The position numbers and the translations under genes are program-made. Source: Escherichia phage EF1-1. From it: a stretch of DNA of 64,000 nt. The notes below the pieces were generated by a model that had not been told where the DNA came from, ran no database searches, and saw nothing but the letters and a program-made list of their open reading frames with translations. The stretch lies in the sequence record PQ571289, one strand, 5' to 3'. Positions 60,716-61,096 of this stretch are shown here, in pieces (position 1 is the first letter of the stretch; each line of letters begins with the position of its first letter).

Positions 60716-60866
60716 CCTATACAAACCCTTATCTTTTTCAGTTTGCATCACTAGGATTCGATCTAGGTGGGTTCCTGAAGGTCTGCCAATAAGATTAAAG
60801 GTTATCTCAAATTCCCATTACCTATTATCTCAAAAAATCCCTCAAATTATTTAAACTTTTTAAGAA

Positions 60867-60914
60867 TTTACAAAAGTGAAAGTTGAAAACCAAAATTTAA
60901 AGTTTAGGAAAATT
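60867..60914. repeat. AT-rich direct repeat, copy 1
   Basis: tttacaaaagtgaaagttgaaaaccaaaatttaaagtttaggaaaatta; about 85% identical to copy 2. Confidence 0.6.
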
Positions 60915-61004
60915 ATCTTAAAATGTCAGATACAAAACAAAACTCAAAAGTCAAGGAAAATTTTAAAAATTTTGCGCGCCCACAGTATTTAAAGTTTTTT
61001 TGCT

Positions 61005-61053
61005 TTTACAAAAATGAAAGTACAAAAGCAAAATTTAAAGTTTACAAAAATTT
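61005..61053. repeat. AT-rich direct repeat, copy 2
   Basis: tttacaaaaatgaaagtacaaaagcaaaatttaaagtttacaaaaattta. Confidence 0.6.
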
Positions 61054-61096
61054 ATGCAGATGGGAATGAGAAGAGTTCTCATATGGAAATGCAAAT

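Follow-up and report, generated by a model that had tools for sequence, protein, structure and literature searches.

A conserved three-unit array of bipartite DNA sites in rV5-like phages: a predicted protein-binding element and possible replication origin

Two AT-rich direct repeats in the DNA of a phAPEC8-like coliphage turn out, on alignment with relatives, to be the outer two, still intact, of three bipartite DNA sites that made up an ancestral array. The array forms the far end of a conserved non-coding module of ~0.8 kb (about 60613-61432 in the window, i.e., the entire 64-kb stretch of DNA that we analysed), and comparison of loci places this module in all rV5-like phages, Vequintavirinae and Stephanstirmvirinae alike. 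The alignments support a role for the array as cis-acting, double-stranded DNA that is predicted to bind protein. Bearing in mind that there are points both for and against an origin of replication, and having weighed both, we put at about 0.4 the probability of the combined statement that this is a DNA-level binding array, most likely belonging to a transcription-activated origin of the T4, T7 or lambda type; the array may, then, be the replication origin of rV5-like phages. Protein binding, transcription into the array and a role in replication are all matters that we infer from the sequence. Taken alone, the repeats are a variant of the iteron-like arrays known from phage control regions; the module is the more surprising element. 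It is the largest conserved non-coding region that we noticed within the window, and we found no account of it or of the repeats in the literature on phAPEC8, rV5, PVP-SE1, Certrevirus and phage Fur boxes.

The segment 60600-61500 is 96-99% identical to phAPEC8-like coliphages, with megablast matches in 139 phage records, and on this evidence the source of the window is a phage of that type (Phapecoctavirus, Stephanstirmvirinae; genomes of ~150 kb). In annotated relatives, ~1.2 kb separates the last rightward gene from the first rightward early genes, and this interval holds only inconsistent ‘hypothetical protein’ calls, an annotated terminator and, where the palindromes described below lie, a ‘repeat_region’ given by two records. 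The locus sits exactly on the boundary of the early region, beside the rightward block that closes with a NADAR-domain gene. The neighbours of the array encode this NADAR protein, a CapR-domain endonuclease, an AAA ATPase (2.4 kb from the array; generic matches only) and an 88-aa protein, for which there was no Pfam family and no informative match in a fold comparison. No tRNA or tmRNA was detected in the window. The 88-aa gene adjoins the module in every lineage; at one locus, L016, the entire module is flipped relative to this gene, and because of that inversion we consider the module to be a unit of its own. Read along the minus strand, the module runs in the order P1, GC-rich core, CpxR box, P2, stem-loop, four palindromes and three-unit array; beyond the array come the TTATCTCAAA pair, a bidirectional terminator and the GATATTTG pair. 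By position in the window, the features are as follows.

60081-60623, plus strand: final gene of the rightward block, encoding a NADAR-domain protein
60613-60629, plus strand: GATATTTG / GATATTTT pair, with invariant columns, that overlaps the stop codon of the NADAR gene and forms the module's far edge
60680-60715, no strand assigned: hairpin GGCTCCTACAGCACCGTAGAGAGCC resembling a bidirectional terminator, its tail T-rich on either strand
60802-60811 and 60825-60834, plus strand: two copies of TTATCTCAAA, a single-locus motif in the window
60843-60914, no strand assigned: repeat unit 1, with box A TATTTAAACTTTTT (60848-60861), a variable spacer and box B GAAAACCAAAATTTAAAGTTTA (60885-60906)
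60908-60980, no strand assigned: decayed middle unit, in which box A is degenerate (ATTATCTTAAAATGT, 60912-60926) and a box-B-like copy is partial (60931-60963)
60981-61052, no strand assigned: repeat unit 3, with box A TATTTAAAGTTTTT (60986-60999) and box B (61023-61044)
61065-61181, no strand assigned: four 19-bp palindromes of the AATGAGAATnATTCTCATT type with a 29-nt period (starts at 61065, 61094, 61123 and 61152), plus an extra inverted half-site
61177-61226, minus strand: stem-loop directly downstream of P2, in which, by inspection, the stems covary between lineages around a conserved loop, GAGACAAACACC
61233-61260, minus strand: promoter P2 (TTGCTT, 16-nt spacer, TATTCT)
61276-61290, minus strand: CpxR box with perfect consensus, GTAAA-N5-GTAAA, 15 nt upstream of the P2 -35 hexamer
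61296-61395, minus strand: near-invariant GC-rich core of ~100 nt, comprising a hairpin (CGCC/GGCG) and then a long hairpin
61402-61430, minus strand: promoter P1 (TTGACA, 17-nt spacer, TATACT; 11/12 consensus), reading leftward, towards the repeats
61433-61699, minus strand: early ORF of 88 aa, adjoining the module in every lineage, in opposite relative orientation in L016

The repeat itself is real and non-random. The two copies (60843-60914 and 60981-61052), each of 72 nt, are 82% identical and lie 138 nt apart, start to start; their ungapped (+1/-2) score is 34, as compared with a mean of 10.0 (sd 1.3, maximum 14) for 300 dinucleotide-preserving shuffles of the AT-rich interval 60720-61064. 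An earlier note on this DNA, made from the letters of the window, had described two repeats of about 48 bp and 85% identity, about 140 bp apart: their existence and separation hold, but their size does not, the ~48 bp being the better-conserved right part of each copy; there are indeed two intact copies, but not two only, as a decayed third lies between them. The surroundings are as that note had them. The stretch that holds the repeats has a GC content of just 28%, and no duplex in the 64-kb window is less stable than 60823-61172 on 100-, 200- and 350-bp scales; on one side there is a terminator hairpin (60680-60704) with a T-run, and on the other the four palindromes (61065-61170) with their 29-nt period.

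Each unit is bipartite: box A (TATTTAAASTTTTT), ~23 variable nt, and box B (GAAAAnSAAAATTTAAAGTTT). We aligned all units from Phapecoctavirus, Justusliebigvirus/phi92 and Klebsiella phage phi1_175008. Across these three Stephanstirmvirinae genera box A, TATTTAAASTTTTT, is invariant in all units, the ~23 nt between the boxes are unconserved, box B reads GAAAAnSAAAwkTYyAAkTTT, and the distance from the start of box A to box B is fixed at 36-38 nt. Furthermore, box B shifts in concert within each lineage (AAATTTAAAG in the window, AATTCTAAAG in the phiWec181 clade, AAAGTTCAAG in phi92), which is the pattern expected of co-evolving binding sites. The middle unit of phi92 is intact and aligns to 60908-60980 of the window, where the unit spacing (64 + 74 = 138) corresponds to that of phi92 (67 + 75). 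Units 1 and 3 are 81-82% identical to those of phiWec181, versus 17-64% for flanking non-coding DNA, and 60-66% identical to those of phi92, versus 40-58% for the flanks; for unit 1 the values are 81% and 66%, against 51% and 40% in its flanks. As judged from these alignments, units 1 and 3 are under purifying selection.

Boxes A and B are confined to the array locus, both in the window and in a further 64 kb from a relative. We considered and rejected a general phage promoter motif: the boxes are single-locus and unlike the annotated PHIRE motifs of phAPEC8, which are 5' stem-loops. Sigma-70 promoters within the units were also rejected, the 9/12 matches that they contain not being kept in phi92.

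Another key observation to emerge from these comparisons is that the geometry of the array outlasts its sequence. Loci of relatives were gathered from IMG/VR and GenBank by means of the 88-aa ORF and a DNA pattern for the GC-rich core; they cover PVP-SE1 (Seunavirus), Av-05, Klebsiella-type phages, three to four Certrevirus-like phages including phiTE, a Serratia phage and A73. Every lineage collected contains exactly three units at the equivalent position, with the exception of A73, which has four to five shorter iterons; in phi92 and phi1_175008 all three units are intact. The sequence of the units can differ completely between lineages, with TATTTAAASTTTTT boxes in the window and CGATCGAG boxes elsewhere: in the loci gathered in this way the unit reads AAAAATTTTTT, ~25 nt, then ..GAAAAnCGATCGAGAAC (CTCAAGTTCT in A73). 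The spacings between anchors, read in the sense of the upstream promoters, are as follows.

PVP-SE1 (Seunavirus) and Av-05: 67/75 nt
LNA4 (Seunavirus): 67/76 nt
Klebsiella-type L025: 67/74 nt
Serratia phage Kashira: 65/67 nt
Certrevirus-like, three phages: 63/78 nt
Certrevirus-like L019: 64/78 nt
Klebsiella phage phi1_175008 (Stephanstirmvirinae): 75/67 nt
phi92 (Stephanstirmvirinae): 75/68 nt

In these loci the three-unit number and spacing persist over more than 10 lineages and two subfamilies, despite turnover of sequence. AT-richness is not the conserved property: the GC content of the array is 34-46% in the Vequintavirinae, whose units are GATC-rich. The types of iteron encountered among the lineages are TTTAAA, CGATCGAG and CTCAAGTT.

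The order of the two spacings is mirrored between Stephanstirmvirinae and Vequintavirinae, and the order of A/T box, spacer and GAAAA box agrees between the subfamilies only when the array is placed on the opposite strand. When a profile of Vequintavirinae units was run with nhmmer, its top two hits were phi92 units on the opposite strand, although these are weak (5.7 and 2.5 bits, with a shuffle maximum of 5.1). We take these data to suggest that the array was flipped, without its surroundings, between one subfamily and the other. An orientation-independent site in double-stranded DNA would tolerate an inversion that keeps position, number and spacing; an RNA product would not. RNAalifold found 0 consensus pairs in 18 units, and this lack of a consensus RNA fold, together with the apparent inversion, favours a function at the DNA level. 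The invariant cores of the units are DNA palindromes (TCGATCGA and TTTAAA), which also point to DNA rather than RNA. The comparison lends good support to the protein-binding array suggested in the earlier note: conservation of the units exceeds that of their flanks, box A does not vary across three genera, all copies of box B within a lineage change together, and the geometry is kept in more than 10 lineages.

Upstream of the array, the hexamers of P1 and P2 are kept in 15 aligned sequences with spacers of variable length (P2 is unmatched in L019), and P2 was located independently in PVP-SE1; in the window the predicted transcript starts are at ~61395 for P1 and ~61227 for P2. PVP-SE1-type phages have an extra promoter, P3 (TTGACA-18-TGnGAAAAT), with a predicted start only a few nt from unit 1; the Stephanstirmvirinae are without it. 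There is no conserved gene downstream of P1 and P2 ahead of the convergent terminator. That terminator hairpin, annotated as such in phAPEC8 and ASO2A, would end the rightward NADAR block and would also halt leftward transcripts from the module.

The GC-rich core that separates P1 from the CpxR box was found by blastn in 231 phage records, mostly unannotated at this place, from phages of Escherichia, Klebsiella, Salmonella, Cronobacter, Pectobacterium, Enterobacter, Erwinia and Serratia. A short and a long hairpin make up its consensus fold, in which two pairs covary (AU/GC 6:6; CG/GC), and an E-value scan of 59500-63000 against Rfam returned no family. At locus L037 an ORF resembling a homing endonuclease is inserted in the core, and P1 and the first hairpins recur downstream in divergent form; this recreated copy suggests that the core cannot be lost.

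The sequence GTAAA-N5-GTAAA is the consensus for CpxR~P (PMC3158067). The single match in the window is not significant alone (0.29 expected); the box occurs in 15/15 aligned sequences, with a variable N5 and a gap to the -35 hexamer of either 5 or 15 nt. It is missing in A73, where P2 has an extended -10, and is half-decayed in Kashira. The two gap lengths differ by one helical turn.

Between P2 and the array, the four palindromes resemble operators for Fur. Scored against the Fur 7-1-7 consensus, TGATAATnATTATCA, they match at 13-14/15 positions (14/15 at 61154-61168, 13/15 at 61096-61110), and a search with this motif gave 8 strand-hits versus 0.63 expected. Their number varies from 1 to 5 by lineage, and outside the module such palindromes occur only in or near the terminal repeat (128 kb of genome searched). 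In the window they lie +60 to +170 downstream of P2, with no promoter beneath them; in some Certreviruses the last site overlaps, by eye, the -35 of a P3-like promoter. On the other side of the array, the TTATCTCAAA motif recurs two to three times at the equivalent place in Vequintavirinae modules (TTTGAGATAA in the RNA sense), and the AAATATC motif of the module's far edge is present there as 3-4 repeats in other lineages.

We propose a model in which the array would work as double-stranded DNA bound by a phage- or host-encoded protein: minus-strand P1 (61430-61402) and the CpxR-box-associated P2 (61260-61233) would fire towards the array, and their transcripts would cross the four Fur-box-like palindromes and then enter the least stable DNA of the region, opening the duplex or priming there. 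Palindromes and units might position the proteins that load a T7-gp4-like primase-helicase, and the array would be the protein-loading and unwinding part of a transcription-activated origin. The anatomy makes an origin plausible, in that tandem promoters lead into the least stable DNA and palindromes adjoin it. The context is also supportive: the array borders the early region, several conserved promoters point towards it with nothing left for them to express, and rV5-like phages encode a T7-gp4-like primase-helicase (PMC3606486). In the rV5 genome, skew analysis did not place the origin. The locus combines multiple, conserved direct repeats that change in concert, as in iteron origins, with promoters that read into an easily unwound A+T-rich element, as in transcription-activated origins; it also has the 7-1-7 match of a Fur operator and, upstream of a -35 hexamer, the box of a CpxR-dependent promoter.

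Other observations run counter to an origin. No initiator gene (Rep- or O-like) was recognised among the neighbours of the array. A search of the modules of ten lineages for DnaA boxes, IHF sites and oriC-type 13-mers (TTWTNCACA, WATCAANNNNTTR and GATCTNTTNTTTT) yielded one DnaA box, in the Serratia phage, and nothing else. The array is only modestly AT-rich in GC-richer relatives, and its unit spacing of 64-78 bp is unlike that of classical iterons, which are ~22 bp apart. Sites for CpxR and Fur typify regulated transcription units, not known origins. Finally, the GC-skew of the window switches at ~18 kb and ~55 kb, away from the array, and tracks the direction of transcription.

The closest described cases, by analogy, would be origins of phage T4: oriF and oriG consist of a promoter and an A+T-rich unwinding element with an R-loop, and oriE of an early promoter and evenly spaced direct repeats that are conserved in relatives and have an undefined role (PMC3016281). 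As in T4, promoters of host type or dependent on an activator lead into an A+T-rich, repeat-bearing stretch, with a small early gene directly upstream; the array is also near a boundary between transcription blocks and, as in oriE, the repeats are kept in relatives. On the other hand, the iterons of T4 oriE are 12 nt long and close together, whereas the three units of the array are bipartite and lie 64-78 bp from one another; a host CpxR box takes the place of a site for a MotA-type phage activator; and Fur-like palindromes and a near-invariant structured RNA segment stand between the promoters of the module and the repeats.

The primary origin of T7 consists of tandem promoters, 1.1A and 1.1B, followed by an AT-rich region. 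The module similarly has same-strand tandem promoters directly upstream of the most AT-rich DNA, and the rV5-like phages have a replisome with a gp4-like primase-helicase (PMC3606486). In contrast to T7, the promoters of the module are of the host sigma-70 type, the AT-rich part contains conserved boxes, and sites for host regulators are present. A third comparison is with lambda ori, in which four 19-bp dyad-symmetric iterons lie beside an AT-rich stretch and which is transcriptionally activated; complexes of O protein with these iterons are reportedly treated in one published study. Here too, four regular 19-bp palindromes lie beside an AT-rich region into which transcription would read. However, their number varies from 1 to 5, their sequence fits host Fur sites and shows no co-variation with a phage initiator, genes resembling O and P are absent, and the element is intergenic rather than within an initiator gene. 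With plasmid iteron origins (R6K gamma, P1 oriR) the array shares direct repeats that change in concert per lineage and, with the repeats of P1 and oriC, the richness in GATC of the Vequintavirinae units; unlike plasmid iteron origins, it showed no Rep gene, DnaA boxes or IHF site, its spacing is threefold larger and its units are bipartite.

The main rival to the origin reading, which we nevertheless think unlikely, is that a long, regulated non-coding RNA is made here, with the array as its body. A transcript of 0.5-0.7 kb from P1 and P2 (and P3, where present) would carry three A/U-rich modules that act as RNA, perhaps a decoy or sponge to which a toxin or a host RNA-binding protein is drawn, and host CpxR (envelope stress) and Fur (iron) would determine how much of it is made. 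Two to three conserved, same-strand promoters directly upstream, with no conserved ORF, are what such an RNA would require; the start of P3 abuts unit 1 in PVP-SE1-type phages, and the CpxR box at P2 and the Fur-like operators are signs of regulated transcription. There is precedent in the same phage group, since phiTE transcribes tandem repeats, at a locus other than this one, that mimic an antitoxin (PMC3475682); ToxI and the pseudo-ToxI of phiTE are, like the array, tandem direct repeats downstream of a promoter. We rejected pseudo-ToxI as the identity of the array, as it is at a different locus (106.7 kb in phiTE, where the module is at ~39.7 kb); moreover its repeats are 36 nt and the units ~70 nt. 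The array also differs from ToxI in having no consensus fold, no toxin partner and no conserved orientation, and repeats of a type III antitoxin-like RNA were rejected on these grounds: 0 consensus pairs in 18 units, orientation mirrored between subfamilies, and no toxin gene. The absence of a consensus structure and of an adjacent toxin gene weighs against a non-coding RNA more generally, as do the nature of the invariant parts (DNA palindromes), the apparent inversion, which would alter the RNA completely, and the lack of P3 in the Stephanstirmvirinae.

We also consider it improbable, to much the same degree, that the array is a non-replicative nucleoprotein site, i.e., an insulator, a silencer, a regulatory platform or a sink that titrates host regulators, which would bind nucleoid-associated or phage regulatory proteins where the NADAR block meets the early region. 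Conservation and geometry do argue for protein binding, the locus is exactly on that boundary, and candidate sites for two host regulators adjoin it. Nucleoid proteins favour motifs of this kind, A/T tracts such as AAATTT and TCGAT. However, the A/T tracts of the array do not show the phased periodicity of ~10.5 bp that marks intrinsic curvature, and an insulator would leave unexplained why promoters are aimed at the array and why the number and spacing of its units have been kept for so long.

It is more doubtful still that the whole 0.8-kb module is a host-signal-gated origin or non-coding RNA locus in which CpxR switches P2 and Fur the palindrome array. If it were, a strictly lytic phage would sense the envelope and iron state of its host and time its replication by them, and the three-unit array would be the place of assembly of the replisome or of an effector protein.

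That the repeats are a neutral, functionless remnant of a local duplication is disfavoured, and we give it very little credence. The middle unit has decayed in Phapecoctavirus, which indicates that not every copy is needed; however, the outer units stand out from their flanks in conservation, box A does not vary between genera and the geometry has been kept in more than 10 lineages of two subfamilies.

The earlier note had offered a packaging-related site as one possibility; that the array is a packaging site (pac or cos) or lies at a virion DNA end is a very remote prospect. It is true that pac regions are typically repeat-rich and non-coding, that Fur-like palindromes of the same type are found in the terminal repeat, that PVP-SE1 and phiTE are reported to be circularly permuted (PMC3475682), and that several database records begin or finish within 2 kb of the module. 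However, Schickermooser, 96% identical at the locus, has at each end of its record an exact direct terminal repeat of 328 bp, which its authors reported (PMC6563267); the repeat is ~13.6 kb from the locus, on its right, has zero matches in the window, and box A is not found in the terminal region. Direct terminal repeats are also the ends reported for Stephanstirmvirinae genomes (PMC12695924). Virion ends ~13.6 kb away make a packaging site or terminus at the array unlikely.

Least credible of all is that the repeats encode a small, lysine-rich protein: the 48-codon, ATG-started ORF at 60923-61069 exists, as the earlier note listed, and is annotated in one record, but in it and two overlapping ORFs we found loss of the start, stops or frameshifts in phiWec181, PsgM04F, phi92, Schickermooser and tuntematon (frame or start codon is disrupted in 4-5/6 relatives compared), a PHROG search gave no family for this ORF or for that at 60876-60992, and conservation tracks the short boxes rather than codons. 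The view that no convincing gene is present was well founded, neither frame nor start being conserved in relatives.

The module brings a CpxR box and Fur-like operators together with a structured RNA that is conserved, and does so in strictly lytic phages; rV5-like phages are widely used in phage therapy and biocontrol. If the array is an origin, it would offer an engineering target (minimal replicons, conditional phages) and a new example of transcription-activated initiation; if the module is instead a regulated RNA locus, it would be a case of a lytic phage that reads the envelope stress and iron status of its host. Beyond phage records, a homologue of the array was sought in 5,426 E. coli genomes, with zero matches, and in 72,556 plasmid records, with a single match: a record of 137.6 kb that is probably an rV5-like phage genome.

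Directly after P1, a strong promoter of sigma-70 type, lies a GC-rich stretch of about 100 nt that is near-invariant between two phage subfamilies (231 records), and its consensus fold comprises two hairpins with two covarying pairs. P1 and this GC-rich core together occupy 61296-61432 (minus strand). The core has no match in Rfam; it may be a new structured RNA, acting as a primer, a leader or an sRNA. The features of the window that concern us here are as follows.

60081-60623, plus strand: gene for a NADAR-domain protein (Pfam, E = 8e-36), last of the rightward block
61065-61181: Fur-box-like 7-1-7 palindromes of the control module, four copies with a 29-nt period
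61276-61290, minus strand: perfect CpxR consensus, GTAAA-N5-GTAAA, 15 nt upstream of the P2 -35 hexamer
within 61296-61432, minus strand: P1, TTGACA-17-TATACT, recognised from sequence
61809-61870 and onward: elements of the kind that PHIRE annotates in phAPEC8 as 'phage-specific promoters' (GTAGGGCGGCAATGGTGCCGCTC)

We also observed that in an IMG/VR locus (L037, 2974574029) the core is interrupted by an HNH/homing-endonuclease-like ORF, downstream of which lies a second, divergent copy of P1 and the first hairpins; counted in RNA sense with the core anchor as zero, insertion and second copy together run from about +60 to +720. The second copy retains the stem topology despite its changed sequence.

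The PHIRE elements, annotated in phAPEC8 (L001 5242-5261 and similar), are GC-rich hairpins immediately 3' of sigma-70 -10 hexamers. In appearance they are not so much promoters as conserved stem-loops at the 5' ends of early transcripts.

The CpxR-consensus site is conserved in all 15 sequences compared, with a gap of either 5 or 15 nt to the -35 hexamer. CpxR is a host regulator of envelope stress, and a predicted site for it in a lytic phage is unexpected.

Across about 128 kb of Phapecoctavirus sequence, the Fur-box-like palindromes are confined to two places: the module, and within or adjoining the 328-bp direct terminal repeat (in the close relative Schickermooser, L007 77-91 and 256-270; L041 12689). 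The very first bases of that repeat (AGCAAGTTCTCTT; L007 1-17) have the 9-mer CAAGTTCTC in common with the iteron of phage A73 (CTCAAGTTCTC; L042 1213-1361), which may be coincidence.

Part of the module, the palindromes and stem-loop, has a 74% match in an E. coli 'plasmid' (CP057073.1 17311-17419); the record's length, 137.6 kb, suggests what we take to be a candidate rV5-like phage genome deposited under a plasmid label. Finally, the NADAR family is connected with reversal of ADP-ribosylation, and the NADAR gene may for that reason be an anti-defence gene.
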